This document shows positions 1-22,593 of a DNA stretch of 23,058 bases, in pieces (within the stretch, counting starts at the first letter, position 1; each line of letters begins with the position of its first letter). Below the pieces are notes generated by a model. That model did not search any database. It worked only from the letters and a program-made list of their open reading frames with translations, and was not told where the DNA came from. The DNA is from Orycteropus afer (lineage: Eukaryota): contig NW_006922148.1 in assembly GCF_000298275.1 (NCBI RefSeq), positions 1,228,987 through 1,252,044 of the forward strand, read 5' to 3'. The translations under genes and the position numbers were made by a program.

Positions 1-140
1 ACCAGAAGGCTGGCAGTTCAAACCCACCAGCCACTCCTCAGAAAGAAGGTTGGGCAATCTACTTCTGTAGTGATACTGCCTCAGAAACCCAAGGATGGGT
101 TGCTATGAGTTGGGTCCGACTCGACGGCACATAACAACAA
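1..140 (+). mobile_element. AfroSINE-type tRNA-derived SINE (copy A). It is 5'-truncated by the window edge and carries the 3' tail '...GACTCGACGGCACATAACAACAA'.
   Basis: Near-identical to the other copies in the window (e.g. 8559-8741). Conserved core 'CCAGAAGGCTGG.GTTCAAACCCACCAGCC...GGGCAATCTACTTC.GTAGTGATACTGCC...GCTATGAGT'. Confidence 0.85.
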
Positions 141-663
141 TATGATTTACAATTTTCTTTCCACGGCTAAACCAGTCCATTCTATCTTGCAATTGTCTTG
201 ATTTTTTCACCATTTAGAAGTTCTATAAGTGCATTACCCCCCACCCCTTTTTTGGTTTGTCGTTGTCTTCATTTGCAAATTTGTGGCTCTCTTCCCTGTT
301 TCCCATCTTTAAAGCTTATTTTACTTGGGATACTTTCATAACTGTGTTGATGTCTGGGTCATGTCATTATGTGTGTTAATGATCGGTTGTTGTTTGCTGT
401 TGTTGGTTCTCTGTCCAAAGGACACCCATTAGAATTTCTTGTAAGGTTGGTTTGGTTTTAATAAATTCCCTTAGTTTATGCTTATCTGGAAATGCCCTAC
501 TTTTACCATCATATTTGCAGGACAGTTTTGCTGCATATATAATTCATGGTTGAAAATTTTTACCTTCATGGTTTTTATATATAGCATCCCATTACCTTCT
601 TGCCTGCATGGTTTCTGCCCAGAAATCCAAGTTTAGTCTTATTACTTGCCCCTTGTAGGTAAC
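141..663 (-). mobile_element. LINE-1 / half-L1 (HAL1-like) fragment, paralog copy 1. It covers the ORF1 C-terminus to junction region and is a collinear paralog of 20700-21890 without the LTR and SINE insertions.
   Basis: Collinear block alignment with 20700-20729 + 21225-21267 + 21469-21890 by eye, e.g. 'TGTGTTAATG.TC..TTGTT..TTG.T.CTCTGTCCAA.GG...CCC.TTAG.AT.TCTT.TAAGGTTG.T.TGGTTTTAATAAAT.CC.T..TTT.TGCTTATCT..AAATG.CCTA.TTT.CC.CATCATATTTG'. The reverse-complement translation of the paralog matches the L1 ORF1p C-terminus. Confidence 0.6.
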
Positions 664-835
664 TGCCTAAGGCATTTGAATGCTAACCAGAAGGCTGGCG
701 GTTCAAACCCACCAGCCACTCCTCGGAAGGAAGATGGGGCAATCTACTTCCGTAGTGATACTGCCTTGGAAACCCAAGGACGGGTCGCTATGCGTCGGGT
801 CTGACTCGACGGCACCCAGCAACAACAGCAACAAC
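664..835 (+). mobile_element. AfroSINE-type SINE (copy B). It lacks ~20 nt of the 5' head and has a (CAA/CAG)n-like tail.
   Basis: Starts at 'TGCCTAAGGCATTTGAATGCTAACCAGAAGGCTGGCGGTTCAAACCCACCAGCC' and ends '...GACTCGACGGCACCCAGCAACAACAGCAACAAC'. Confidence 0.85.
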
Positions 836-2860: not shown

Positions 2861-3061
2861 AAAAAAAACCCAAAAAAAAACAAAAAACCAAACTCACTGC
2901 TGTTGAGTTGATTCTGACTCATAGTGACCTCTCCATAGGTCCCTGAGGTGGTATGGAAGTAGATTGCCCAGTCTTCCTTCTGAGGAGTGGCTGATGGGTT
3001 TGAACCGTCAGCCTTCTGGTTAGCAGTCAAATGCTTTAGACACTATGCCACCAGAGTTCCC
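2861..3061 (-). mobile_element. AfroSINE-type SINE (copy C) of the second tail subfamily (tail '...GACTCA..GGCAGTGAGTTTGGTTTTTT', with an A-run on the + strand at 2861-2885). It is nested in the L1 with the TSD TCTTCAGTA(C/G).
   Basis: The tRNA-like head 'GGGAACTCTGGTGGCATAGTGTCTAAAGCATTTGACTGCTAACCAGAAGGCTGACGGTTCAAACCCATCAGCC' is read on the minus strand. Flanks are 'CTTCTTCAGTAC|' and '|TTTTCTTCAGTAG'. Confidence 0.8.
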
Positions 3062-3436
3062 TTTTCTTCAGTAGTGCTTTGCTTATCTGGGGTCTCTTTC
3101 CTCTCCATTTAAAATTAGTGATTGACTTTTCCATGTCCTTAAAGAATTTTGATGGGATCTGGATTGGGATTGCATTGAATGTATAGATTGCTTTGGATAG
3201 TACTGACATTTTCACAATATTCACTCTTGCTATCCATGACCATGGTATGTTCTTCCATTTATGTACTCTCTTAGGGTTTCTTGAAGTCATGTTTTGTAGT
3301 TTTCTTTGAATGGGTCTTTTGTGTTCCTGGTTTGATTTATTCCCAACTATTTTATCTTTTTAGTAGGCATTGTAAATGGTATTGATTTCCTTTTCAGAGA
3401 CCTCTTTGCTGATGTAGAGGAATGCAACTGATTTTT

Positions 3437-4077: not shown

Positions 4078-5600
4078 TCTTCTTTTGATGCTTCTTGCAT
4101 TGTTCAATATTTTGCCCATAGAATCCTTCAGGATTGCAACTCAAGGCTTTAATATTTTCTTCTGGTCTTTCAGCTTGAGAAATGCCAAGTATATTCTTTC
4201 CTTTTGATTTTATAACTCCAGGTCTTTGGACATTTCATTATAATATTTTACTTTGTCTTCTTGTGGTGCCCATTGAAATCTTATGTTCAACTCTTTCACT
4301 TCATCTTTTTTCCATTTGCTTTAGCTACTCTTTGTTCCAGATCAAGTTTCAGAGTCTCTTCTAACATCCAGTTTGGTCTTTAATTCATTGCATGTCTTTT
4401 TAATGACCTTTTTGTTTCTTCATGTATGGTATCCTTGATGTCATCCAACAACTCCTGTGGCTTTGGTCATTAGTGTTGAGTGCATCAAATCTATAGTTCA
4501 GATAGTCTCTACGTTCAGGTAGGATATACTCAAAGTTGTACTTTGGCTCTTGTGGTTTTGTTTTAATATTCTTCAGCTTCAACTTCAGCTTGCATAGGAT
4601 CAATTGATGGTCTTTTCTGCAGTTTCCCTTGACCTTGTTCTGACTGATGATATTGAGCTTCTCCATTGTCTCTTTCCACAGATATTGTTGATATGATTCT
4701 TGTGTATTCCATCCAGTTATATCCACGTGCATTTTATATTGTTGAAAAGTGGTATCTGCAATAAGTAATTCATTAGTCTTGCAAAATTCTATCATGTGAT
4801 CTCCAGTATAGTTTTATATCGCCAACATCATATTTTCCAACAATTGATCCTCCTCCTTTGTTTCCAACTTTTGTGTTCTAATCACCAGTAATTATCAATA
4901 CATCTTGATTGAATGTTTGGTCAATTTCAGAGTTCGGAAGTTGGTACTTATCTTCAATTTTTTCATCTTTGGCTTTAGTGGTTGGTGAGTAAATTTGAAT
5001 AATAATTGTATTAACTGATTTTTCTTGTAGGCTGATGGATGTTGTCCTGTCATTGACACAATGTACTTTATGATAGATTATGAAATATTCTTTTTGACAA
5101 TGAATGTGATGCCATTCCTGTGCAGTTTTTCATTCCTGGCATAGTTGACCCTATGTTTGTATGATTCACATGGCTAGTGCCTGTCCATTTCACCTCACTA
5201 ATGCCTAGGATATTGATCTTTATGTGTTCCATTTCAGTTTTGATCACTTCCAGTTTTCTAAAATTCACGTTTTCTACATTCCATGACTCAGTTATTAATA
5301 GATGTTTGTAGCTATTTCTTCTCATTTTGAGTTGTCCCAGATCAGGAAGTGAAGATCTTGAAAGCTTTATTCTATCCACATCATTAAAGTCATCTCTACT
5401 TTGATAAGGAAGCTCTTACTCAGTTGTATTGTGAATACTTTGCAGCCTGAGGGGCTCATCTTCTGGTACTATATCTGGCAGTGTTCCATTGCTAGTTATA
5501 AAGGTTTCAGTAGCTTATTTTTTTCAGAGCTAAATCACTACTTCTGCTTGTTAGTATGTCTTAGTCTGGAAACTCTGCTGTAGTCTGCCCACTACAGGTG
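4078..5600 (-). mobile_element. RTE/BovB-type LINE, copy 3. It covers the 5' region (5'UTR, AP-endonuclease domain and the linker to the start of RT) and is degraded. It abuts the L1 at ~4078.
   Basis: The minus ORFs 5068..5379 ('VIKTEMEHIKINILGISEVKWTG') and 4400..4795 ('LLIADTTFQQYKMH...HQLILCKLKLKLKNIKTKPQEP') match the BovB endonuclease ('VVKQEMARVNIDILGISELKWTG', 'LVIANTLFQQHKRR...HELLIAKFRLKLKKVGK'). The nucleotide sequence is collinear with the reverse complement of RTE copy 2 (15440-17200). Confidence 0.8.
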
Positions 5601-6879: not shown

Positions 6880-7055
6880 CAGAGCATGGGGTTTGGAGTC
6901 AGAAAGACAGACAGGAGTCAGAGGAAAGACAGGAGTCAGAATCCTTGGTTTGTTCTTTTCTAGTGCTTTGACTTTGAGGAAGTTATTTAACTTCTTTGTG
7001 CCTCAGTTTCCAGATGTGCAAAATGGGAATAATCACCCATTGGTGTTGTGACTTT
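6880..7055 (+). mobile_element. MIR (ancient tRNA-derived SINE) fragment.
   Basis: The MIR core 'TGACTTTGAGGAAGTTATTTAACTTCTTTGTGCCTCAGTTTCCAGATGTGCAAAATGGGAATAAT' compares with the MIR consensus '...GACCTTGGGCAAGTTACTTAACCTCTCTGAGCCTCAGTTTCCTCATCTGTAAAATGGGGATAAT'. Confidence 0.7.
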
Positions 7056-8040
7056 TAGGTACCATGAATGCAATTAACTAGTAAATTTTTTGACATGTTG
7101 GAGATGCATAACAAATTATGAATACGTTACAAGAGGCATATGTCCTTTGAATTTTACAACTTGCCCCATATGATATTTCATTCCTGAAATGGCCTCTGCC
7201 ATGAGGAAGGTTGGCCCCAGAATAACTCATTTAGTAGAGAGTTTTTATTAATTTATGGTCAGACAGCTATCTTGTAGATTAATCTTGCATATCTGAGCAG
7301 AGGCTGAATAGAAAGGACCTCTCTGTGCTTGGCTCATGTATTTTAACTTTTCTTGGAATAAGTTTAATGTTTTTAGTTTATTATTTATATAATGATTTTT
7401 TCAAAATGTGGAAAATTAGATGTCAACATCTTATATTAGTTTATGTTCTAAATTCTAATAAAAATACTTCTATCATCATTACCTAAAATTACTTATTTAT
7501 TTGAGTGCCCAGTTATACATCATGAATATATAAGGAAAATCAAGCTGACAGAGCCTGGAACTCACATGCAAAGACAAACTTGTTAAGCAGAGACAGTAGG
7601 ATATCTACAGAGTAATATGAAGACGCTTACCTAAAATACGATTCAATGATAATCATACTCATGAAATACATGCCAAGAAAATATGTGCCAGAGGAGTTTG
7701 GTAGAGTTGTGTGAAACTGAGAGAGTTTTCTGTGCAACCAAAGAGTGAGCAAGATATCTTAGTAGCGCTTTGATCAGGACAAACAGAGCCCTGTGCCATT
7801 TCCAGTCTTGGTTTCTCCCCTTCTAGACTCTCATGGGGCCACACAGGTAGCTCAGAAACTTTCGGACTTGTACCTGTGGGGTTGTTTTGGGTAAGTCCCG
7901 ACCCTAGTTCTTGGGAAGTAATCTGTCAAGAACTCTCCCCCTAGCCATTGAAGCATTTGTTTGCAGGATTTTAAGAGACTGGATCTCCAAAAGGGTGCCA
8001 GCCTGCTGACTTGGGGTGCCTCGAATTGTTTATAAAGGCT

Positions 8041-8230
8041 TTGTTGTTGTTGTTGTTATGTGCCGTCGAGTCAGCCCCGACTCATAGCGACCCCTCCTTG
8101 AGTTTCCGAGGCATTATCACTACGGAAGTAGGATTGCCCAACCTTCCTTCCAAGGAGTGGCTGGTGGGTTTGAACCGCCAGCCTTCTGGTTAGCAGTCAA
8201 GTGCCTTAGGCACTATGCTACCAGAGCTCC
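8041..8230 (-). mobile_element. AfroSINE-type SINE (copy D), full length, with a 12-bp TSD TTT(A/G)TAAAGGCT.
   Basis: The sequence is '(TTG)n TTATGTGCCGTCGAGTCAGCCCCGACTCATAGCGACC...CACTATGCTACCAGAGCTCC'. Flanks are 'GTTTATAAAGGCT|' and '|TTTGTAAAGGCT'. Confidence 0.9.
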
Positions 8231-8558
8231 TTTGTAAAGGCTAGAGCCCCTAGAGCCCCTCAACACTTCCCTGGTGCCCTATACACCATAGCTTTTAGCA
8301 AATCCAATTGTGGACAACATTTTATAATAGGCCCCACCCCCACCCCATTTTGGTGTCTTTGGTGACTATAAATTGTTAAATATTTTTCCTTATTAGTACC
8401 ACTGTTTATTAAAAAATACCAAATATTTAAAAATTCCTGCTTTTTCTTGGTAAGGGAGTGATGTGATAAAACTATCCTTTTACAAAGATTAATAGGAAAG
8501 AAGACAGTAAGATAGAGTGGGATGGAAAAGGTTTTATTCAGGAGCTATCTAGGCAGGA

Positions 8559-8741
8559 GGGAGCTCTGGTAGCATAGTGCCTAAGGCACTTGACTGCTAA
8601 CCAGAAGGCTGGTGGTTCAAACCCACCAGCCACTCCTCGGAAGGAAGATGGGGCAATCTACTTCTGTAGTGATACTGCCTCGGAAACCCAAGGAGGGGTC
8701 TCTATGAGTTGGGTCCGACTTGACGGCACACAACAACAACA
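8559..8741 (+). mobile_element. AfroSINE-type SINE (copy E), full length. It is in inverted orientation relative to copy D, 330 bp away.
   Basis: 'GGGAGCTCTGGTAGCATAGTGCCTAAGGCACTTGACTGCTAACCAGAAGGCTGGTGGTTCAAACCCACCAGCCACTCC...GGTCTCTATGAGTTGGGTCCGACTTGACGGCACACAACAACAAC'. Confidence 0.9.
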
Positions 8742-9185
8742 TTTAGGTGGGAAGAATTGAAGACTTAGATTAGAAAAGCCACAAGAGAAGTAGGTAAAAC
8801 CAAAAAGACATCTCCAAGGAAGAGTACCAAGACATCATAGATTGAATATAAAGAGTATTCTGGAATAATATGACGCCCACATGCTATAAGAAGGCCTGAA
8901 AAAGGGATTTTTTCCTGGCCAGCTTAATAGTAGCTACAATGCTAACTAAGTTACACTGCTACCAAGTGACTCATCTTCAGTTAGGTGTGTATGAACTACC
9001 TAAACATGGAGACAGTGCATTTTCTCCTGTGACATGGACTCTGCATTGTTGTAGTATCTCTTCTAATATCTGAAGCCAGAGTTGGGAACTTGAGGGGCAT
9101 GATAAAAAGTCAAGGAATTTAAAACAAATGTGCATAAGAATTTTATTAGTAGATACATTATGAAGTATGGATTTTTCTTCTTCAG

Positions 9186-9317
9186 GTCATCGTGTTTCAA
9201 ACATACACAAATCAAAGTCATGTACCCATTGAGGCAAAATATATCTTTCCTCTGGATGATAAGGCTGCTGTGTGTGGCTTTGAAGCTTTCATCAATGACA
9301 AGCATATAGTAGGACAG
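9186..9317 (+). CDS. Internal coding exon (132 bp, phase 0) of a VIT-domain protein gene (VWA5A/ITIH/PARP4 family). It encodes VIVFQTYTNQSHVPIEAKYIFPLDDKAAVCGFEAFINDKHIVGQ.
   Basis: The acceptor is 'TTTTTCTTCTTCAG|GTC' and the donor is 'GGACAG|GTAAAG'. It is an open frame in unique (non-repeat) sequence. The motif 'FPLDDKAAVCGFEAFINDKHIVG' matches the VIT-domain consensus (human VWA5A 'FPMDEDSAVYSFEALVDGKKIVA', ITIH4 '...FSMIIDGMTYPGIIKEK', both from memory). Confidence 0.75.
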
Positions 9318-10056
9318 GTAAAGGAAGAAAATATATTGTGACTTCACTTTGTTTTTCCGTTTACCTAAAACTTCGTTATCTGAGTCTCCATAGCAGTGAG
9401 GTTGAGCCACAACCTAGTTGTAAAGCAAAGGTATTTTTGTACTTACACAATTAGTCTCCAGTCAGATATCCTCCCTGATTACCTCTTTATATCCCTGTTC
9501 ATCCAGGCTTTGTTGGTCAGTGTCTGGCAAATTTTATGCCTAGGCAATTCAGAGAAGAATGACTTCAATATCAAAAGTTTAAGAGGTACATTGGATAACT
9601 GGTGAAGCCCTTATTTACTTTTGCAAAAACTGATTCTCTTGAACCTGCTGTAAAGTTTAAACTGAAGTGAATTTAGAAAAATTATACCAAAAGAAATAAG
9701 TTGATTTATTCTTTGTTTATTCTAAACATTAGCCCCTAATTGTAATAACAATCTGTATTTTGTTAGATTTAAGATAAAATAAACTTAATTTAGTATTTTT
9801 TGTTCAAAATAAAGTCTCATTCAAACTTTTTTCCACTTTATAAATTCAAATATTTTGTTTCTAGTTTTAAGAGAATTTTCTTTAATTGTCCTTTTGGGTT
9901 TAAATTATTGATGATCACTTTCCATAAGCTTCCAGTTTGCTTAGACCCAGTATTAGTTTTTTGTTTTTGCCTAGGTTTCAGTAAACATGATGAAGTTTTC
10001 CTAATTAAAGTCTGAAGTCACCATATTATGACGGATGTAAGAACTATTTTTTCCAG

Positions 10057-10143
10057 GTTAAAGAGAAGGAAGAAGCCCATCGAGAATACCGGGAAGCCAT
10101 TAGTCAAGGCCATGGTGCTTACTTGATGGATCAGGATGCACCG
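10057..10143 (+). CDS. The next coding exon (87 bp, in frame) of the same VIT-domain gene. It encodes VKEKEEAHREYREAISQGHGAYLMDQDAP.
   Basis: The acceptor is 'TATTTTTTCCAG|GTT' and the donor is 'GCACCG|GTATGA'. It continues exon 9186-9317 in frame. The hallmark 'VKEK.EA...Y..AISQGH.A.L' matches VWA5A 'LQDKMKARTNYEKAISQGHQAFL' and ITIH 'IKEKAEAQAQYSAAVAKGKSAGL' (from memory). Confidence 0.75.
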
Positions 10144-11280
10144 GTATGACTTGATGTTCATCTGCTAGCTTAGTACATTTATTAGAAATGAAAAAGGGGT
10201 TGAAAATGATTTGAAATATGAAATTCATACTATAAATCAAGATAACTTATAGTATTTAGGGCCTTGGAGTTTCATTTACTTTTGGCAGGGGGAGGGCAAG
10301 CTGGTCAGACCCATGTGACTTGTCTAAATAAAGAAGGAAATGGTATAAATATTACCACACAAATAAGCACTATTTCTTAATTGGTAACTGAGTTTCCCAG
10401 AAATAACAACAAAAAGGAAACATTTGGGTTGTTAATTATCACCTTTTAATAAAAGAGTGTAATGTATTTACAGGATAAATTTACCTAGAATTAAGCTCAC
10501 CTAAAATTTTACTCACTTTTCACCAAATAATAACTTAGGAACACATTGGTGCAGGGTATTGACATAGGGCCAGATTCTTTCCTTTCTTCTTAATAGCTTT
10601 AAGCTCAGAAATAATACCACTCATCTGTTCTTTCTTCCTTAATCATTTCTAATACTAACCCATCTCTTGAACTCTTTATCCTGTCTATTCCTAGTCCTTG
10701 CTTCATCAGCTATTTCCTTTAGTGTTTCCAACTTCTCTCTTACTACTTGCTTTTTATCCCTGACCTCTCTAGCCTGAAAAATAAAGCAAGGCCTTCCTTT
10801 ACCTCAAAACAAACCCATTTCAACACAAAACTTACCCATTTTCTTATTAATTTACTTCTCAGTGTGTTGCAGTGACTCCCCACATCAGGCTACTGAAAGG
10901 CTCCCAGTAAGGTATCTTGTTTCCAAAGTGTCAAAACAACAGTTTTTCTGTGACATTCTAGATGACCCTACTGCAGTTTTGACTCTGTTGACTAGCCCTT
11001 TCTTCAGTTCAGCAGTTGAACTAACATTAATACCTATACCAGATGCTAGTGACTTAGAAATAATATGTAATCCCACATGGAACTCACAGTGCAGTACGGA
11101 AAGCAAACTAAACAAAGAGTGTGATATGTGACAGAGTATTAAAGACATGTACTGAATGTAATAGTGGCACAGTAAGGCACCACCAGACAAGTGAGATGTA
11201 ATAGTCATAGGACCCTTCCTAGAGAACAAGATACTTGAGCAGTCTTAAAAAATGAATAGGAACTTCTTCGGTAAACTAAG

Positions 11281-11528
11281 AGGTGGACTCTGGTTGGTGC
11301 AAGTGGTTAAGTCCTCAACTACTAATGGAAAGGTTGGCAATTGGAACCCACTCAGAGGCACCTTGGAAGACAGTCCTGGTGATCAGTTTCTGAAAGGTCA
11401 CAGCCTTGAAAAACAAATAAATAAATAAACAAATTAAAAAAAAAAAAAAAAAACCGATGGAGCAGGTCTATTTTGTACATATGAGGTCGCTTTGAGTCAG
11501 CATCAACTTGATGGCAACTCAACAACAA
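11281..11528 (+). mobile_element. tRNA-derived SINE of a distinct subfamily (copy K). It has a divergent tRNA-like head, an internal 42-bp A-rich tract (11404-11445) and the conserved 3' block 'GGTCGCTTTGAGTCAGCATCAACTTGATGGCAACTCAACAACAA'.
   Basis: The head 'GGTGGACTCTGGTTGGTGCAAGTGGTTAAG...GGTTGGCAATTGGAACCCACTCAGAGGCACCTTGGAAGACAGTCCTGG' is homologous in architecture to other AfroSINE/CORE-RTE-type SINEs. The 3' block is shared with the other SINE copies and with RTE tails. Confidence 0.65.
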
Positions 11529-12383
11529 ATTCACAGACGGTAAGTAACCTGAAATAGCACATTTCATTGGGAGTGTCAGTATTTTGTCCTGTCTGGAGTG
11601 ATATGGATAAGATTTGTCTTTGAGAAAGAACACTCAGATGGCAATGAGAAGGTTGGAGTGGCCTATGAGTTGTCAGGGAGACTAAGTGACTCTTATGGTA
11701 ATCTAGGCAAGAGGTATAATGAGGGGCTGAACTAAAATAGTGACAGTGGGAATGGAGAAGATGCAACTTGTGAAAGATCTTAGAGAGGTAGAATGTACAG
11801 AATTGGTTAAAGATGGGAGGATGTGGGCGTGCCAAGAGAATGGAGTATGAATGGCTCTTGGTCAAGTCTGGCTTGGATGACTAGAGGCTGTTTGCCATCA
11901 ATGAAGTCATGGATTTGAGAAGAGTAGAGTCTTTGTGAATATGGGGATACTGCAAGTGGGAGGAGAAAGTGAGTTTGAGAAATTGCTGGGACATCTTGTG
12001 CATGTGTCCCTGAGGTAGCTGGATATGTATTTGGGAGTTCAGGGGTGAGGTATGTACTGGAGGTGGAAATCTGTATATCATCGTTGGAGTCTCTGAGATG
12101 GCATTGTGACAGGGGCTAGGTATTATAACAGAGATTAGGTAACAGAGATTGGATGTAGTCCTGAAACACCTAGCTTTAAGTTTGGGTGGTAGAAGGGGAA
12201 AGGAAAAAGTATCTGAACTGCCATTATCTAGGGAAAAGTTCCCTAACACAATGTTATCATTTCCTAAGTCTAATTGAGTGTGAAATTATATACTTGTTTT
12301 TCTATCAAGATTCCTTGAGTTAAGGCACAGTAATGAGTCCCAAGTCTAAATTACTAAATCAAATTTATATTGCCCCACTTTTG

Positions 12384-12409
12384 ATATATATATATATATA
12401 TATATATAA
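12384..12409. repeat. (TA)n microsatellite (~12 units).
   Basis: 'GATATATATATATATATATATATATAAAATC' read directly. Confidence 0.95.
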
Positions 12410-13284
12410 AATCATTCATTAATCTGACTTTTTGAAATCAGGTGAAAGGAACAAGGTAGAATATTTATCAAATCTGTAATTGAAAATGAAAATACAAAAA
12501 ATAAAAAAACAAATTAAGTACTTTTTGTAAAACTGATCTCATTACCTTCCCCTCCAAACTTTCTTTCTGTGTTCCTTGTCTCTGTCATCCTTCATGTCTC
12601 TTTTTCCTCTCCTCCATTTCCTATTAAATTAGCCATCTGAATTTTCATGTTTATTACATCCATGGAATGTGTCCTATGCCACAACCTATTCTATAGCCAT
12701 TAAATAACTTTAGACCTATTGGTTATTCCTTTGACTCATTAATGCGGAGTAGTAGGCTTCCAAGTTCTTCAGTCCTATCCTGTGTTACTACTTTCTTCCA
12801 TGTCATATCTTAATAAGCCTGAGTTATTTGTGTTTCCTGAAAATACAATGACACTCCATTTGTTTGCTTAATTTTTTTAAATATCATTTTAAAATTTTTA
12901 GCTCCAGTATCCTTTCATCTAAGAGAAAACTAAAGCTTTTCCTGCCATTCCTCAGGAAAGTTAGGTGCCTTTGTTTTATGCTTCCAATACAAACTTGTAT
13001 GTGTCTGTGTCATAACTCTTACACTGTTTAGGAAGATAGAGGTTTAGCTTGTAATCCCCAGTACTTAAGCAGGGAAGTAACAGAAAAGGATAGATAAAAG
13101 AGTTAGTGGGAAAATAAAGAGAAAACTATGGTGCCAAAACCAAGACTGGAGAGAGTGCTTCAGGTAGGGTTACTTATAGCCTCCTAATTGCCAGATTAAA
13201 TAGCAGTGTTTCTGAGACCAAATTTTTTTGAGAAGTTGACCATTTTCTTCTTCCTAAAACATCTAGACTGACTTATTTATCACT

Positions 13285-13471
13285 GTTGTTGTTGTTGTTA
13301 TGTGCTGTTCAGTTGGACCCGACTCATAGTGACCCCTCCTTGGGTTTCTGAGGCAGTATCACTATGGAAGTAGATCGCCCAGCCAACCTTCCGAGGAGTG
13401 GCTTGGGGGGTTTGAACCGTCAGCCTTCTGGTTAGTAGTCAAGTGCCTTAGGCACTATGCTACCAGAGCTC
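13285..13471 (-). mobile_element. AfroSINE-type SINE (copy F), full length. It is inverted relative to copy G, ~70 bp away.
   Basis: '(TGT)n TATGTGCTGTTCAGTTGGACCCGACTCATAGTGACCCCTCC...CACTATGCTACCAGAGCTC'. Confidence 0.85.
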
Positions 13472-13542
13472 TTACCCTTACACTATTAAATTCAATCTGA
13501 CAGTCTCCGTCTTTTAATTAGGTTGTTTTTGTTTAGACCATA

Positions 13543-13654
13543 GGAGCACTGGTAGCGTAGTGCCTAAGGCACATGACTGCTAATCACACAAATAAGTTCA
13601 AACCCACTAGCCACTCCTTGGAAGGAAGGTTGGGCAATCTACTTCCATAGTGAT
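13543..13654 (+). mobile_element. AfroSINE-type SINE (copy G/H), 5' segment. The SINE is split by an RTE insertion and its 3' segment lies at 14983-15056.
   Basis: 'GGAGCACTGGTAGCGTAGTGCCTAAGGCACATGACTGC...GGGCAATCTACTTCCATAGTGAT' stops where the antisense RTE 3' end begins. The SINE resumes at 14983 with 'GATACTGCCTCGGAAACCCAAGGAGGGGTCGCTATGAGTCGGGTCCGACTCGATGGCACATAATAACAACAAC'. Confidence 0.85.
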
Positions 13655-14982
13655 GTTGTTTTTGTTGTTAGGTGCCATTGAGTCATTTCCGACTCATAGC
13701 GACCCCATGCACAGTAGACTGAAACACTGCCTGATCCCATGCCAGCTCCATGGTCCCTGCTATACTTGAGCCCATCATCACAGCCACTGTGTCAATCCAT
13801 CTCGTTGAAGGCCTCCCCCTCTTTCGTTTATCCTCCATCCTACCAAGCATGACATCCTTCTCCAAGGAATGGTTCCTTCTGACAACATGACCAAAATAGG
13901 TGAGACGAAGTCTGGCCTTTCTCGCTTCCAAGGAGCATTTCGGCTGCACTTCCTCCAGGACAGATGTGTTAGTTCTTTTAACAGTCCATGGTACTTACAG
14001 CATTCTTTGCCAGCACCACAACTCAAAAGCATCAACTCTTCTTCGGTCTTCCTTATTCATTGTCCAGCTCTCACATGCATACGAGGTGATTTTACATATC
14101 ATGGCTTCTGTCAGGTGCATGTTAATCCTCAAGGAGACATCCTTGCTCCTCAGCACTTGAAACAGTTCCTTTGCAATTGACTTTCCCAGTGCCACACGTC
14201 ATCTAATCTCCTGACTGCTGCTTCCATTGGCATCGATTGTAGAACCAAGCAATGTGAATTCTTTGACAACCTCAGTCTTCTCTCCATTTATTATGATGCT
14301 GCTTATTGGTCCAGTTGTGAGGATTTTTGTTTTCTTTATATTAAGATGTAATCCATACTGCAGACTGTGTTCTTCAACCTTAATCAGTAAGTGCCTCAAG
14401 TCATCCTCACTTTCAGCAAGCAAAGTTGTATCGTGTGCATATCTCAGGTTGTTAATGATTCCTCCTCCAATCCTGATGCCACGTTTTCCTTCATATAGTC
14501 CAGCTTCTCGGTTTATTTGCTCAGAATATAGATTGAATAAGTGTGGGGAAAGGATACAACCCTGACGCACTCCCTTCTTGATTTTAAACCATGTAGTGTC
14601 CCCTTGTTCCATTCGAACGACAGCCTCCTGGTGAAAGTAGGTGAAGTTCTTCATGAGTACAATCAAGTGTTCAGGAATTCCATTCTTCTCAATGTTATCC
14701 ATAATTTGTCATGATCCACACAATCAAATGCCTTTGCATAGTCAATAAAACACAAGTAAACATCTTTCTGGTATTCTTTGCCTTGAGCCAAGATCCATCT
14801 GACATCAGCTATGATATCCCTTGTTCCATGTCCTCTTCTGAATCCATCTTCCACCTCTGGAAGTTCTCTGTCAATATACTTCTGCAACCGTTTTTGAATT
14901 ATCTTCAGTAAGATCTTACTTGCATGAGATATTAGTGATATTGTTTTATAATTTCCACGATCTGTGGGAATTATATCCATAA
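13655..14982 (-). mobile_element. RTE/BovB-type LINE, copy 1. It is the 3'-terminal 1.3 kb (RT C-terminal half to the 3' end), 5'-truncated, and is inserted into AfroSINE G/H with the TSD CCATAGTGAT (13645-13654) / CCATAATGAT (14976-14985).
   Basis: Minus ORFs include 'ISLISHASKILLKIIQKRLQKYIDRELPEVEDGFRRGHGTRDIIADVRWILAQGKEYQKDVYLCFIDYAKAFDCVDHDKLW' and 'GVRQGCILSPHLFNLYSEQINREAG...RYAHDTTLLAESEDDL'. These match BovB RT 'IALISHASKVMLKILQARLQQYVNRELPDVQAGFRKGRGTRDQIANIRWII...YFCFIDYAKAFDCVDHNKLW' and 'GVRQGCILSPCLFNLYAEYIMRNAG...RYADDTTLMAESEEEL'. The 3' terminus read on the minus strand is 'GGTCGCTATGAGTCGGAAATGACTCAATGGCACCTAACAACAA'. Confidence 0.9.
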
Positions 14983-15056
14983 TGATACTGCCTCGGAAAC
15001 CCAAGGAGGGGTCGCTATGAGTCGGGTCCGACTCGATGGCACATAATAACAACAAC
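14983..15056 (+). mobile_element. AfroSINE copy G/H, 3' segment (the continuation of 13543-13654).
   Basis: See 13543-13654. The joined parts reconstitute a complete SINE. Confidence 0.85.
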
Positions 15057-15224
15057 ATGTTTAGACCATTTACAGTTAATGTAATTACTGATATGATCTG
15101 ATTAATAGTTACCTTCTTGCTAATGGTTTTCTATTTTTCTTATTATTTATTATTTTTTTGGTTTCCTTTTCTTGTATTGAACTTTTTTTTCAATGATTCC
15201 ATTTTATCTCCATTATTGGCATAT

Positions 15225-15345: not shown

Positions 15346-15885
15346 TATTGGCTAACTTATTGGATAGCAAACCTTTTGTTTTATCATTTCAGTGGTCTAT
15401 TGGTCAACACTGCTTTAGGGTTTACTATATACAACTTTTGAGCCCCTCACATTGGAAGGAACTCAAAATACAACTGGGAGAAAGCTGTGTCCTCAAAGTA
15501 GAATTGACCTTAATGATATGGGTGGAATAAAAGCTTTTGGGACCTACATTTGCTGATGAGGCACCAACAAAATGGAAAGAAACAGCTGTAAACATTCATT
15601 AATAATCAGAATATGGAATGTACAAAGGATGAATGTAGGGAAATTGGAAGTTTTCAGTAATTAAATGGAATGCATAAAGATAGTACCCCTAGGCATTAGG
15701 GAGCTGAAATGGATTGGTATTAGCCATTTTGAATCAGACAGTTGTATGGTGTGCTATGCTGGGAATGCCAATTTGAAGAGAAATGGTGTCACACTCATCA
15801 TCAAAAAGAACATTTCAATATCTATCCTGAAGTACAATACTGTCATTTATAGAATAATACCCATATGGCTATAAAGAAGACCAGT

Positions 15886-16069
15886 TAAACCAAACTCACT
15901 GCCATTGAGTGGATTCTGACTCATAGGGATCCCCTTTGGCTTTCCAAGGGGGTAAATATTTATGGAAGTAGATTGCCCAGTCTTCCTTCTGCAGAGTGGT
16001 GGGTGGGTTTGAACTGCCAGCCTTCCGGTTAGCAGTCAAATGCCTTAGGCACTATGCCACTAGAGATCC
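15886..16069 (-). mobile_element. AfroSINE-type SINE (copy I) of the second tail subfamily ('AAACCAAACTCACTGCCATTGAGTGGATTCTGACTCATAG' on the + strand). It is nested in RTE copy 2.
   Basis: The head on the minus strand is 'GGATCTCTAGTGGCATAGTGCCTAAGGCATTTGACTGCTAACCGGAAGGCTGGCAGTTCAAACCCACCCACC'. The RTE reading frame resumes immediately afterwards ('NTTITRIYAPTTKAKDE' matches BovB 'ITVIQVYAPTSNAEEA'). Confidence 0.85.
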
Positions 16070-16937
16070 TAATACTACTATTACTCGAATCTATGCACCA
16101 ACCACTAAAGCCAAAGATGAATAAATTGAAGATATTTACCAACTTCTGCAGTCTGTAATCAGCCAAACATGCAATCAAGATTGCTTATGATTGGAATGCA
16201 AAAGGTAGAAATGAAGAATTAACAATAGTTGGACAATGTGGCCTTGGTGATAGAAATGACTTGGGAGATCAGCATTTTGCAAGACCAATGACTTATTCAT
16301 TGCTAATATGTTTCTTCGGCAACATAAATGGGGCTATATATGTGTACCTTGCCAGATGGAATACACAGAAATCAGATTGATTACCTCTGTGGAAAGAGGA
16401 GATGTAGAAGCTCAGTATCTCCTGTGAAAGCAAGACCAGGAGCTGATTGTGGAACAGACCACCAACTGCTCATATGCAGGTTCAACTTGAAGCTGAAAAA
16501 AATTAAAACTAAGTCCATGAGAGCCAAAACATGACCTTGATTATATCTCATCTGAATTTAGAAACCATCTGAAGAATAGATTTGATGCATTGAACATCAG
16601 TGACCAAAACCCAGACGAATTGTAGAATGACATCAAGATGACAACAAAGAAACAGTCATTAAAAAGGCAAGAGAGGAAGAAAAGACCAAAATGGATGTCT
16701 GAAGACTGTCTGAAACTTGCTCTTGAATGCAGGATAGCTAAAGCAAGTGGAGGAAATGACAAGGTAAAAGAACTGAATATTTTGAAGGGTACCTTGAGAA
16801 GACAACATAAAGTACTGTAATGAAATGTGCAAAGACCTGGAGTTAGAAAACCCAAAAGGAAGAACACAGTCAGCATTTATCAATCTGAAAGAACTGAAGA
16901 AAACATGCAAGCCTTGAGTTGCAATATTGAAGGATTC

Positions 16938-17108
16938 TGTGGGCAAATATTGGGAGCTCTGGTGGCATAGTGCCTAAGGCATGTGACTGCTATCTGGAAG
17001 CCTGGTGGTTCAAATCCATCAGCCACTCCTCAGCAGGAACATTGGGCAATCTACTTCCATAGAGATACTGCCTTGGAAACCCAAAGAGGGGTTGCTATGA
17101 GTCAGATC
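16938..17108 (+). mobile_element. AfroSINE-type SINE (copy J), nested in RTE copy 2 with a perfect 11-bp TSD TGGGCAAATAT. It lacks the usual 3' tail.
   Basis: Flanks are 'CTGTGGGCAAATATTG|GGAGCTCTGGTGGCATAGTGCC...' and '...GTTGCTATGAGTCAGATCTGA|TGGGCAAATATGAATGATG'. RTE copy 3 shows the empty-site sequence 'TATGGGCAAAATATTGAACAATG' (reverse complement of 4105-4127). Confidence 0.85.
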
Positions 17109-18754
17109 TGATGGGCAAATATGAATGATGCAGGAAACCTCAAAAGAGGATGGAATACACAGAGTCACTGTAAACAGAAAGAGTTGGTTGATGTTCATTT
17201 GTTTCAGAAGGTTGCATATGATCAAGAACCACTAGTATTTAAGGAAGAAGTCAAAGCTGCACTAAAGGAAGTGGCAAAGAGCAAGGCTCCAGGAGTTGAT
17301 GGAATACCCATGTTCCAACAAACGGATGCTGTGCTGGAGGCACTTGGCCACTTATGCCAAGAAATTTGGAAGACAACTATCTGGCCAACTGACTGGAGGA
17401 GACCAATGTTTGTGCTCATTCCAAAGAAAGGTGATTCAACAGAATATGGGAATTATTGAATATCTTTAATATCACATGCAAGATTTTGCTGAGAATAATT
17501 TAAAAATAGTTGCTCCAGTTTATTGACAGGGAACTTCCAGAAATTTAAGCTGGATTCAGAAGAGGATGTGGAATGAGGGATATTATTGCTGATGTGAGAT
17601 GGATCTTGGCTGAAAGCAAGCAATACCAGAAAGATGTTTACCTGTTGACTATGCAAAGACACTTGATTGTGTGGCTCGTAATGAATTATGGATAAAATTG
17701 AAAATAATGGGAATTCCAGAACACTTAACTGTGCTCATGAGGAACCTGTACATAGACCAGGAGGCTGTTGTTTGAACAGAACAAGGGGATACTGCATGGT
17801 TTTAAATCAGTAAGGGTGTGCATCAAGATTGTATCCTTTCCCCATACTTAGTCAATCTGTATGCTGAGTAAATAGTTTGAGAAACTGGACTATATGAAAA
17901 AGAATGCAGCATCAGGGTTGGAGGAAAACTCATTAACAGCCTGCAATATGCAGACAACACAACCATGTTTGCTGAAAGTAAAGATGACTTGAAGCACTTA
18001 CTGATGAAGATTGTAGACTACAGCCTTCAGTATGGATTACACCCCAACATAAAGTAAACAAACATTTTTACAACTCGACCAACAAGCAACATCATAATAA
18101 ATTGAGAAAAGATTGGAGTTGTCAGAGATTTTATTTTTCTTGGATCTACAATCAACACTCAAGGAAACAGCAGTCAAGAAACCAGACATTGAATTGCACT
18201 GAGCAAATCTGCTGCGAAAGACCTCTTTAAAGTGTTGAGAGAGGCAAAGATGTCATTTTAAAGACTAAGGTGCACCTGATGGAAGCCATGGTGTTTTCTA
18301 TCACCTCAAATGCATGTGAAAGCTGGAAAATGAATACGAAAGTCCAGAGAAGAGTTGATGCCTTTGAATTATGGTGTTTGTGAAGAATACTGAAAATACC
18401 ATGAACTGCTAGAGGAACAAACCAATCTGTCCTGGAAGAAGTGCTCCTTAGAGGTGAGAATGGCCAGACTTCGTCTCACCTACTTTGGTCATTTTGTCAG
18501 AAGGAACCATTCCCTGGAGAAGGCTATAATACTTGGTAAAGTACTGGGTGGGGTAAGTGGTCAGTGACAAAGGGGAAGACCCTCAGTGAGATGGACTGAC
18601 ACAGTGCCTATAAGGATGCTCTGATGTGTAGCAAAGATTGTGAGCATGGAGCATGACTGGGCAGTGTTATGTTCTCTGGTACACAGGGCTCATGTGAGTT
18701 GGAGGTGACTTGATGGCACCTAACAACAACAATATGAATATTGTAGCATCCAAA

Positions 18755-19254: not shown

Positions 19255-19451
19255 GGATCTCTGGTAGTGTAGTGCCTGAGACATTTGACTGCTAACCAGA
19301 AGGCTAGGGGTTCAAACCCACCAGACACTCCTTGAGAGGAATGTCAGGCAATCTACTTCGTAGTGATACCGCCTCGGAAGCCCAGGGAGGGGTCTCTATG
19401 AGTTAGATCCGACTCGATGGAAGTGAGTTTGTTGTTTGTTTTAGTTTATTA
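19255..19451 (+). mobile_element. AfroSINE-type SINE (copy L) with the second-subfamily tail ('...GACTCGATGGAAGTGAGTTTGTTGTTTGTTTTAGTTTATT').
   Basis: 'GGATCTCTGGTAGTGTAGTGCCTGAGACATTTGACTGCTAACCAGAAGGCTAGGGGTTCAAACCCACCAGACACTCC...GGTCTCTATGAGTTAGATCCGACTCGATGGAAGTGAGTTTG'. Confidence 0.8.
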
Positions 19452-19453
19452 AT

Positions 19454-19547
19454 TGTTGTTGTTATGTGCCATCGAGTTGAACCCGACTCATAGCAACCCC
19501 TCCTTGGGTTTCTGAGGCAGTATCACGACAGAAGTACATTGCCCCAT
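19454..19547 (-). mobile_element. AfroSINE 3' half (copy M), 5'-truncated. It abuts copy L tail to tail in inverted orientation.
   Basis: 'TTGTTGTTGTTATGTGCCATCGAGTTGAACCCGACTCATAGCAACCCCTCCTTGGGTTTCTGAGGCAGTATCACGACAGAAGTACATTGCCCCAT'. Confidence 0.8.
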
Positions 19548-20729
19548 TAGTTCGTTACTATGAGGGGTTAATGTGCATCAAATGGATGTGATAATATACA
19601 TTTAAATGCATTTTATTGAAATATAATTTATGTACACTGAAATACACAGAATTAAAGTGACATGGGTCAGTGCTTTTTTTTTTTTTTTTGCAATGTTCTC
19701 TCCTTTGCCCTCCCACACCTGGCAACCAACAAAGAAAGTTTCCCTCCATATATAAACCTTTCCTTGACCCCCCACAACAATGAACTAAAACTATATTTGT
19801 CCTTCTGTGATTGACTTATTTTACTCAGAATAATATCCTCCAAGTTCATCCATGTTATGCATGTTTTTGCAGACTCTACATTATTGTTTAGTGTTGCATA
19901 GCATTGTATGTACCATAGTTTGGTCATCCATTCTTACATTGATGGGCATATAGGTTGTTTCCATCTTTTTGTTATTGTGAATAGTGCTGCAATGAACATG
20001 GGTGTGTATATATCTGTTCCTGTCCTGGCTCTCATCCCTCTAGGATATATCCCAGTAGTGGGATTGTTGGGTCAAATGTTATCTCCTATTCCAGATTTCT
20101 AAGGAATTGCTATACTGCTTTCCACAGTGGTTGTATCACTTCACAGTCCCATCAGCAGTGTATGAGAGTCCCAATCTCTCCACATCCCTGCCAGCATTTG
20201 AACTTTGCCATCAGTGCTGGGGTGCTATGGAATCTCATTGTTGTTTTGATTTGCATCTCTCTGATGGCCAGTGATCGTGAGTATCTCTTCATGTATTTGC
20301 TAGCCACCTGAATATCCTCCTTGCTGAAGTATCTATTCATGTCTTCTGCCCATTTTTCAATTGGATTTTTAATTCCTTTGCTGTCGAGGCACTGGAGTTT
20401 TCTATAAACCTTAGAGATAAGTCCCTTGGCAGATAAATAATTATCAGCAAATATGGATTTGTTGCTGTCATTTTTGTTACGTGCTTTTTTGTGGTATTGA
20501 TTTCTTTATTCCATATAATTTTCTATGCTGAGCTCATTTTGTTTATGAATTGTGTTATCATTTCCTTTGTTGCTATTATTTTAGTATTTGCTAAATATTT
20601 GTGCTGGTCCTCTTTTTTATTTTGATGTGGAGGTGTATCATTTTTCTTTGAGGTTACCCTGTGCTTTATAGTTTTCTTCCCAAGTTCAGAAAAGTCCATT
20701 CTATCTGGTAGTTGTCTTGACTTCCCTAG

Positions 20730-21224: not shown

Positions 21225-21278
21225 CCTACCATCTAGATGTTCTGTAATGACACAGATTTTTTCCCCTTTTTGGCTTGT

Positions 21279-21468
21279 TGTTGTTGTTGATGTTATGTGC
21301 CCTCGAGTCAGCCCTGACTCATAGCGACCCCTCCTTGGGTTTCCGAGGCAGTATCACTACGGAAGTAGGATTGCCTAACCTTCCTTCCGAGGAGTGGCTG
21401 GTGGGTTTGAACCGCCAGCCTTCTGGTTAGCAGTCAAGTGCCTTAGCTACTATGCTACCAGAGCTCCC
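21279..21468 (-). mobile_element. AfroSINE-type SINE (copy N) inserted in the half-L1 with an 11-bp TSD TTTTGGCTTGT (21268-21278 and 21469-21479).
   Basis: '(TGT)n GATGTTATGTGCCCTCGAGTCAGCCCTGACTCATAGCGACCCCTCC...CTACTATGCTACCAGAGCTCCC'. The flanking direct repeats are identical. Confidence 0.9.
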
Positions 21469-21489
21469 TTTTGGCTTGTAGTTGTCCTC

Positions 21490-22593
21490 ATTTGTCAATT
21501 GATGTCTCTGGTTCCCTGTTTACAGTCTTGTAGGCTTATTTACTTTGTATACTTCCATAGCTGGGTTGGTTTCTGGGTTATATCATCATGTGTTAATGGT
21601 CATTGTTATTGCTTCTCTGTCCAAGGGGCTCCCTTTAGCATCTCTTCTAAGGTTGATCTGGTTTTAATAAATCTCCTTCATTTCTGCTTATCTACAAATG
21701 TCCTAATTTCCCCCATCATATTTGAGGGATAATTTTGTTTGGTACATAATTCTTGGTTGGAATTTTTTCTTTTTCACGGTTTTATATGTACCATCCCATT
21801 GTCTTCTCTTCTGCATGGTTTCTGCTGAGAAATCTGAGCTTAGTCTTCTTGGTTGCCCCTTGTAGGTAACTTTTTGTTTCTCCTGTGCTGCTTTGAGGAT
21901 TCTTTATTTGTCTTTGGTTTTGGTGAGTTTGCTGATGATATTTCTTGGTGATTTTCTTTTGGGTTCTGTCCTGTTTTGGGTTCGTTGGACTTCCTGAATG
22001 GATATATTCTTATCTTTCATCCTACCAGAAAAATTCTGTTCCAACAAATCTTCTACAATTTTCTCTGTGGTTTTATTTGTCTCTTCCTGTTCTGGAATTC
22101 CGATTACATGTAGGTTGTTCCTTTTTATGGTATCCCACATGAACCTTAAGCTTTTTTCATTTTGTTTTGATCTTTTTTTTTTCTGATTGATCCCTTTCCA
22201 AAGAAGTATTGAGGTACTTGCCTTCAATCTTACTAATTCTCTCTTCAAGTGATTCAATTCTAATCCTTTGCCCATCTTATCTATTTTTGAAAATTTAATA
22301 TTAATCTTCTGGATTTCTGTGCATAGATTTTGTATCATTTCTAATTTTTCATTGATTTTGTCATTTTGTTGTATTGTCTTTCAGAATTTTTCTAGGGTTT
22401 TCTCTGTGTTTTCCTTGATCTGCCTCTCAATTTGTTGAAAATACCTAAATATAATTCTTTTGAATTCCTTATGAGGGAGTTCCAGTGCTGCATCTTCCTC
22501 AGGGATGTGTTTTGGGTCTGTATCCTGCCTTGTTTCTCCTGCTTTATCTTGCTTCTTTGTGTGGACTGTGGTGCTCTGTTGTTTCTGAGGCAT
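21490..22593 (-). pseudogene. L1 ORF1p-like coding region of the half-L1. It is disrupted (an in-frame stop near 21895 and a frame break near 22340-22380).
   Basis: Minus-strand translations: 'EFKRIIFRYFQQIERQIKENTEKTLEKF' (coiled-coil part), 'WDTIKRNNLHVIGIPEQEE...LLEQNFSGRMKDKNISIQEVQRTQNRTEPKRKSPRNIISKLTKTKDK*RILKAAQEKQKVTYKGQPRRLSSDFSAETMQARRQW'. These match human ORF1p 'WDYVKRPNLRLIGVPESDV...IIQENFPNLARQANIQIQEIQRTPQRYSSRRATPRHIIVRFTKVEMKEKMLRAAREKGRVTLKGKPIRLTADLSAETLQARREW' (from memory). Confidence 0.8.

Follow-up and report, generated by a model that had tools for sequence, protein, structure and literature searches.

A head-to-head AfroSINE pair in a PARP4 intron, predicted to form a long RNA hairpin and probably a substrate of ADAR1

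The AfroSINE copies D and E, which lie head to head in an intron of PARP4, are a real and ordinary instance of a well-known phenomenon, the intronic inverted SINE pair. We analysed the whole stretch of 23,058 nt in which they are found (hereafter the window), and folding predicts that their RNA forms a long and nearly perfect hairpin. The likeliest fate of this hairpin, and in our judgement a probable one, is to be hyper-edited from A to I by ADAR1 within the intron. In metazoans hyper-editing occurs mostly in long near-perfect dsRNA formed by neighbouring inverted repeats, chiefly SINEs, on one pre-mRNA (PMC5625713). The editing idea is a direct transfer of this general metazoan rule and not a new insight, and one more intronic inverted SINE pair leaves the picture of endogenous dsRNA and A-to-I hyper-editing unchanged.

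SINE copies were searched for by BLAST using E (8551-8745) as the query, which gave 14 matching segments in the window. The copies are reported in Table 1, together with the PARP4 exons and the LINE fragments.

Table 1. Coordinates of the exons, SINE copies and LINE fragments in the 23,058-nt window
Feature	Position	Strand	Remarks
AfroSINE A, (CAA)n type	1..143	+	cut by window edge
AfroSINE B, (CAA)n type	664..834	+	BLAST, alignment
AfroSINE C, classic subfamily	2880..3062	-	BLAST, alignment
AfroSINE D, (CAA)n-tailed subfamily	8041..8230	-	antisense to PARP4; 5' arm of the predicted hairpin in the pre-mRNA
Spacer between D and E	8231..8559	+	329 nt, unique sequence, middle AT-rich; loop of the predicted hairpin
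AfroSINE E, (CAA)n-tailed subfamily	8560..8745	+	sense to PARP4; 3' arm of the predicted hairpin
PARP4 exon X	9186..9317	+	132 nt, phase 0; ...cttcag/GTC, CAG/gtaaag; encodes VIVFQTYTNQSHVPIEAKYIFPLDDKAAVCGFEAFINDKHIVGQ = human PARP4 639-682
PARP4 exon Y	10057..10143	+	87 nt, phase 0; ...ttccag/GTT, CCG/gtatga; encodes VKEKEEAHREYREAISQGHGAYLMDQDAP = human PARP4 683-711
AfroSINE F, (CAA)n subfamily	13284..13471	-	partner of G; could also pair with E on the other side of exons X and Y (88.5% complementary)
AfroSINE G, 5' half of one SINE	13543..13654	+	split by RTE1 insertion
RTE1/BovB-type LINE fragment, 5'-truncated	13655..14979	-	inside SINE G/H; inverted partner of 17459-18732
AfroSINE H, 3' half of G's SINE	14980..15057	+	target-site duplication common with G
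Near full-length RTE1-type LINE	15439..18740	+	hosts SINE insertions I and J; 3' end of ~45 nt and (CAA)n tail common with SINEs
AfroSINE I, classic subfamily, GGCAGTGAGTTTGGT-type 3' end	15889..16069	-	inserted in RTE1(+) element
AfroSINE J	16952..17112	+	target-site duplication TGGGCAAATAT; inverted partner of I
AfroSINE L, classic subfamily, GT-rich tail	19255..19449	+	BLAST, alignment
AfroSINE M, 5'-truncated, (CAA)n type	19450..19547	-	tail-to-tail at L's tail and target-site duplication
AfroSINE N, (CAA)n type	21276..21469	-	94.8% identical to D

The gene context is new with respect to the preliminary description of this DNA and consists of the PARP4 exons for residues 639-711. Exons X and Y were picked from stop-to-stop ORFs, as two adjacent segments of the + strand that read as one protein. 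Their joined product (73 residues) matches Pfam VIT with E = 2.7e-25 and aligns end to end with human PARP4 639-711 (E = 3.8e-38; PDB 9bw6, 9bw7, 11jf), and no further PARP4 exon was found in the window. In a compact non-mammalian PARP-VIT homologue the PARP catalytic ORF is located directly upstream of the VIT ORFs, which is consistent with the PARP-VIT architecture of PARP4; two other homologue contigs, in the search with the 73-aa product, match the window across the exon only, at 82-83%. PARP4 is broadly expressed and, given the intact exons and the canonical splice sites, we infer that it would be transcribed here as well. The positions of X and Y place D/E in the intron before exon X, and the pairs F/G, I/J and L/M in the downstream intron, which measures at least 12.9 kb and in which F starts 3.1 kb after exon Y. 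As PARP4 is read from the + strand, D and E stand on one pre-mRNA; the earlier proposal that the SINE pairs share a putative pre-mRNA is supported by these exons, though the pairs are spread over two introns.

The coordinates of D/E and the spacing of 330 nt that had been given for the pair are correct. A gapless repeat finder returned arms at 8132-8230 and 8560-8658 (99 nt, 96% complementary) with 329 nt between them, and the tail of D appears on the + strand as (TTG)n at 8041-8057. The identity of the arms, for which ~85-90% had been claimed, is higher, since BLAST of E against the window aligns D at 8230-8048 on the opposite strand with 92.35% identity over 183 nt.

MFE folding, which takes no account of proteins that bind during transcription, of helicases or of the speed at which introns are removed, gave -421.2 kcal/mol for the + strand RNA of 8041-8745, compared with -201 +/- 8 kcal/mol for shuffled sequences (z = -27.5), and a very similar -427.2 kcal/mol for the - strand RNA. 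In the MFE structure the D:E stem comprises 182 inter-arm bp, with 8 G-U pairs, a longest uninterrupted helix of 81 bp and a loop of 314 nt. When longer sequences were folded, namely 7000-10300 and 8000-13700 (3.3 and 5.7 kb, the latter with F present as a rival), D:E kept 173-174 bp. Folding thus predicts the stable long duplex on which the dsRNA proposal of the preliminary description depended. Of all 42 pairs in opposite orientation within the window, none has a lower duplex energy than D/E (-345 kcal/mol), and D/E is the closest of the long inverted pairs; two pairs 2-7 kb apart exceed it in percent identity, but over 68-78 nt only.

According to the mechanism that we propose, D would be transcribed first and E ~330 nt later, and the two would fold back on each other as a hairpin within one molecule, with ~182 bp, 81 bp of them without interruption, around a loop of ~314 nt. 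D and E are expected to snap together because E is the nearest and best-matching partner in the window. As is the case with inverted pairs of Alu, B1/B2 and other animal repeats, the duplex would then be bound in the nucleus by ADAR1 and edited promiscuously from A to I (there are 90 adenosines in the two arms, of which 40 are preceded by U or A), and the intron carrying it would be spliced out and degraded. No coding or regulatory consequence would be expected, and the pair would be a neutral by-product of SINE density. The analysis establishes the anatomy of the sequence, its gene context and the predicted fold; from these we infer that in vivo the arms of D/E would probably pair, bind ADAR and be edited.

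Chance expectation was evaluated with a model of 12 independent SINEs, placed with random position and orientation in 23 kb, in which adjacent inverted pairs with a gap of at most 330 nt were counted. Under this model 0.95 close inverted pairs are expected and P(>=3) = 0.057, so that an excess of inverted pairs over chance was rejected as not significant. Abutment as close as that of L/M (gap <=10 nt) has P = 0.033, and orientation changes in 7 of the 12 neighbouring SINE pairs, where ~50% is expected. The arrangement of the pairs is mildly clustered and is roughly what SINE density predicts. The complementarity of the arms, on the other hand, is far beyond chance, with fold z-scores of -27.5 for D/E, -15.6 for F/G and -9.9 for L/M, and this is trivially explained by common SINE ancestry.

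This near-random arrangement is one of the points that speak for inert DNA, that is, for neutral SINEs whose hairpin is too short-lived or too inaccessible in vivo for detectable editing, possibly because hnRNPs coat it, helicases unwind it, the intron is turned over quickly or PARP4 is weakly expressed. No sequence feature demands a function, the identity between D and E is the neutral expectation, and a search of the accessible literature for RNA editing in AfroSINEs or Afrotheria found no report. However, a metazoan survey accepted putative dsRNA by BLAST at >=65% identity over >=80% of the region (PMC5625713), and the D:E duplex surpasses this criterion in length and in perfection, while its loop is shorter; it is also stable in longer sequence contexts. 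We consider inert DNA rather unlikely, and editing of the D:E hairpin remains the preferred reading.

The same editing logic would apply, more weakly, to F:G, I:J, L:M and the inverted 1.3-kb RTE1 pair of the downstream intron. The coordinates and the 71-nt gap previously given for F/G are correct, but the arms are 81.6% identical over 114 nt, below the claimed 85-90%; the predicted stem is 96-107 bp. G was at first a candidate for an independent 3'-truncated SINE, which was rejected: a perfect 12-nt target-site duplication, TGTTTAGACCAT, is present at the 5' end of G and at the 3' end of H, and G and H are for this reason one SINE split by the 1.3-kb RTE1(-) insertion. The inserted fragment matches Pfam RVT_1 (E = 4.5e-16 and 5.1e-12), and it is because of RVT_1 matches that the LINE fragments are called RTE. 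Concerning L/M, the two elements do abut as described, but their homologous arms cover ~75-86 nt at ~81%, so that the claimed >=95 nt was too generous; between them the two tails make up a loop of 48 nt, and the predicted stem is 72-86 bp. A further adjacent inverted pair, I(-)/J(+), was absent from the earlier list (81.6% over 152 nt, with an 882-nt spacer) and has a predicted stem of 142-152 bp (142 bp in the MFE fold). None of the SINE pairs, however, gives the largest duplex predicted for the window; this is formed by the inverted RTE1 LINE pair 13655-14979 / 17459-18732, which is 75.9% identical over 1305 columns in self-BLAST and has 1078 nt paired in the MFE structure of a 6.35-kb fold.

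M, with its (CAA)n RNA tail, sits exactly at the GT-rich tail and target-site duplication of L. This placement, and with it the abutment of L/M, may have a simple cause, since it would be expected if the M tail had paired with TTG-like DNA at the target while reverse transcription was being primed there, following a tail/target pairing model that PMC6007223 attributes to Gilbert et al. 2008.

An effect of the pairs on splicing or nuclear retention had also been suggested, and here our analysis offers no support: D/E is wholly intronic and E ends 444 nt before the exon X acceptor. Nuclear retention by inverted Alus concerns 3'UTRs. A more specific regulatory reading, which we judge very unlikely, is that E:F pairing favours a 219-nt circular RNA while D:E competes with it and favours linear splicing. 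E(+) upstream and F(-) downstream do bracket exons X and Y, which are both of phase 0, and over 182 nt they share 88.5% identity, their duplex energy being -335 kcal/mol. It is also known that competing reverse-complementary sequences affect circularisation (PMC5042038), and human PARP4 has been reported to give a circRNA, whatever its exons. In the fold of 8000-13700, however, D takes up the whole of E (174 bp) and 96 bp join F to G, leaving zero E:F pairs. E:F cross-exon pairing was therefore rejected as the dominant structure, and with E taken by D and F by G the predicted outcome is no circle; moreover, the E/F geometry is expected by chance in so SINE-dense a region.

A bolder version would have the D:E versus E:F balance, tuned by ADAR, set a lineage-specific 219-nt PARP4 circle or the skipping of the in-frame exons X and Y, to which we attach only a slight probability. 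It includes the proposal that young (CAA)n AfroSINEs and 5'-truncated RTE1 fragments would give unusually dense competing dsRNAs around the PARP4 VIT exons, and this part too we regard as highly improbable. The competing structures of that set are D:E, E:F, F:G, I:J, L:M and the 1.1-kb RTE:RTE stem. If true, the balance would be the first functional role for AfroSINE pairs.

At the DNA level, close inverted repeats, especially L/M and F/G, could extrude hairpins or cruciforms when the DNA is replicated, and the locus would then be liable to deletions or inversions. Single-strand DNA folds give some substance to this hazard (L/M, -52 kcal/mol with a 48-nt loop, z = -11; F/G, -93 kcal/mol, z = -17), and in the human genome there is a depletion of inverted Alus that lie close together, with verified cases of deletion (PMC3215922). 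Fragility drops with the distance and divergence of the repeats (PMC10164571). However, high identity and a very short spacer are combined in none of the three pairs L/M (81%, 48-nt loop), F/G (82%, 66-71-nt loop) and D/E (92%, 329 nt): those with short spacers are short and only ~81-82% identical, while D/E is alike enough but 329 nt apart. At D, E, G/H, J and N the target-site duplications have been preserved, which indicates that no rearrangement has occurred at these elements so far. The genome instability that the preliminary description had envisaged thus finds no support, and we give a deletion- or inversion-prone locus a very small chance.

Concerning the origin of the pair, a multiple alignment of all window copies describes an element of ~185 nt overall with a tRNA-like head. 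A pattern search located pol III A and B boxes, TAGCATAGTGC ... GGTTCAAACCC with a 55-nt span, in D, E, F, N, C and J (8166-8220 in D, 8570-8624 in E). A permissive scan with the Rfam tRNA model scored 26.2 bits for E (E = 0.0044) and 18.8 bits for D, both of which fall short of the gathering score (29), as they should in a decayed tRNA derivative; Rfam at gathering thresholds gave zero matches in the window and ARAGORN no intact tRNA. Pseudomonas P26 matches in the permissive scan were discarded as a chance likeness to the B-box stem. Over its last ~45 nt (GGGGTCGCTATGAGTCGG..GACTCGATGGCAC.TAACAACAA) the SINE can be aligned to the 3' end of each of the two RTE1 fragments in the window. Tails are of the (CAA)n kind in A, B, D, E, F, H, M and N, and GGCAGTGAGTTTGGT or GT-rich, as in the classic subfamily, in C, I and L. 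Among elephant subfamilies (CAA)n tails mark AFROSINE2 / AFROSINE-2_LA and (GGTTT)n tails AFROSINE (PMC6007223), and the 3' part of AfroSINE comes from RTE, its subfamilies being mobilised by RTE1 (PMC6007223, PMC5786205). The window copies fit AfroSINE by head, 3' end and tails, an assignment made by anatomy and not by a curated consensus. We also take them to resemble the AfroSINE consensus of Nikaido et al. 2003.

Target-site duplications could be read for D (TTTATAAAGGCT / TTTGTAAAGGCT, 11/12), G+H (12/12), J (11/11) and N (7/7), and approximately for E (TAGGCAGGA / TAGGTGGGA), L and M. D and E have different target-site duplications and flanks and are therefore two separate retropositions. 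Divergence from the local (CAA)n subfamily consensus is 2.9% for D and 4.6% for E, which predicts a D/E identity of 92.6% against the 92.3% observed; since this is what is expected for two young copies, no gene conversion or selection is required. Of the 14 differences between D and E, 11 fall at consensus positions 90-176, the second half of the element. Most of the consensus CpG sites, as read, lie in this second half, and faster decay there may explain the imbalance. Local inverted duplication, or gene conversion or selection for pairing that kept the copies alike, has next to no probability: the tRNA-like halves are indeed 96% complementary, above the 3' halves, but this bias may reflect the faster CpG decay, the product of the consensus divergences accounts for the identity, D is more like N, 13 kb away, than like E, and the differing target-site duplications together with the neutral-level identity rule these origins out. 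Judged from their sequence, D and E are independent and fairly recent insertions of the RTE1-mobilised (CAA)n AfroSINE subfamily in head-to-head orientation.

The value of D/E lies in being a clean test locus, with a 182-bp near-perfect stem and a short loop. It is suited to asking whether RTE-mobilised AfroSINEs play the role of Alus in afrotherian transcriptomes.

Inverted Alu pairs in primate introns and UTRs are the main ADAR1 A-to-I substrates, and Alu arms measure ~300 nt. Like D/E, these IRAlus are opposite copies of an abundant pol III-derived SINE, a few hundred nt apart on one pre-mRNA, which form a long imperfect intramolecular duplex as a by-product of SINE density, and their editing is promiscuous (PMC5625713 for the rule). 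Alu is however derived from 7SL and mobilised by L1, whereas AfroSINE has a tRNA head and an RTE-derived 3' end; the AfroSINE arms are shorter (~185 nt), with D/E 92% identical, and editing is known for Alus and predicted here. The exon circularisation brought about by complementary sequences such as flanking inverted Alus also has a counterpart, in that E and F flank two exons with D as a within-intron competitor, but the predicted fold here prefers the within-intron pairs D:E and F:G.

The inverted RTE1 pair can be compared with 3' fragments of the chicken CR1 LINE, because fragments that hold the LINE 3' part pair in the manner of SINEs. Both RTE1 fragments include that part and can for this reason pair over ~1.1 kb, and the same explanation has been given for chicken CR1 editing (PMC5625713); the pair described here differs in its 76% identity with indels, and its editing is hypothetical. 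As regards the element itself, a caveat to reading such copies as a mark of an afrotherian host is the horse SINE2-1_EC, which is built like an AfroSINE and also ends in (CAA)n, although at 407 bp it is longer than the ~185 bp found here (PMC6007223, PMC5786205). In arm length, the most direct analogue of D/E is given by inverted B1/B2 pairs, although B1/B2 belong to another lineage and depend on L1 as the LINE partner instead of RTE1. Mouse B1/B2 and other short SINEs derived from tRNA or 7SL form shorter duplexes and are edited at lower overall levels.

Within the 23-kb window, no coding sequence was found beyond the two PARP4 exons that encode the VIT domain; both are of phase 0 and have canonical splice sites. 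They are flanked by the AfroSINE copies E and F, one on each side, and this geometry suits the formation of circRNA. In the predicted fold, pairing of E with F is out-competed by the within-intron partners D and G. The sequence of D, an antisense SINE in the intron upstream of these exons, holds at 8041-8075 (+) a pyrimidine/G-rich tract and, directly after it, AG dinucleotides; this arrangement might be a cryptic acceptor with exonisation potential. In the PARP4 sense transcript the same stretch reads (UUG)5UUAUGUGCCGUCGAGUCAG.

Features annotated in the window
Feature	Positions	Strand	Remarks
L1 fragments	1755-2150 / 3039-3359 / 19810-20447 / 21907-22380	- / - / / -	
Second inverted LINE pair	4105-5458 / 15439-16952	- / +	
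Tandem repeat	6895-6941		18-nt unit, 2.6 copies, GGAGTCAGAAGAAAGACA
SINE pair E / F	8560-8745 / 13284-13471	+ / -	88.5% identity over 182 nt
PARP4 exons	9186-9317 / 10057-10143	+	encode VIT domain, human residues 639-711
(AT)12 microsatellite	12384-12408		
AfroSINE halves G / H	13543-13654 / 14980-15057	+	one copy, split by RTE1(-)
Inverted pair of RTE1/BovB-type LINE 3' fragments	13655-14979 / 17459-18732	- / +	
RTE1-type LINE, near full-length	15439-18740	+	two SINE insertions, opposite orientations
SINE I	15889-16069	-	inserted in RTE1-type LINE
SINE J	16952-17112	+	inserted in RTE1-type LINE

G at its 5' end and H at its 3' end are bordered by a perfect 12-nt target-site duplication, TGTTTAGACCAT. 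Where the RTE was inserted within this SINE, CCATAGTGA / CCATAATGA occurs as a repeat; since RTE1(-) went into an existing SINE, the RTE1 copy is the younger of the two. SINE J has the target-site duplication TGGGCAAATAT and ends in ...GAGTCAGATCTGA, without the usual 3' tail. The SINE L(+) is older than M(-), a 5'-truncated SINE of the (CAA)n type inserted at its tail. Because the insertion point of M coincides precisely with L's GT-rich tail and target-site duplication (19420-19470), it is suggested that the RTE machinery was primed on TTG-like DNA from this tail.

The members of the second inverted LINE pair are ~72.6-72.8% identical over ~1.35 kb, with ~10 kb between them; their ORFs found no match in Pfam and were judged, from their sequence, to be probable fragments of the RTE endonuclease region. 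Concerning L1, one ORF1 piece matches Pfam Transposase_22 (E = 1.1e-11); several ORFs look by eye like ORF2, without Pfam support; the regions 1674-2318 and 19810-20447 form a direct pair (72%).

The inverted RTE1/BovB-type 3' fragments are 76% identical over 1.3 kb and lie 2.5 kb apart. Because 1078 nt of one copy are paired with the other in the MFE fold of 6.35 kb, this pair is, as modelled, the largest potential dsRNA of the window. It is analogous to the 3' fragments of chicken CR1, which are SINE-like for editing.
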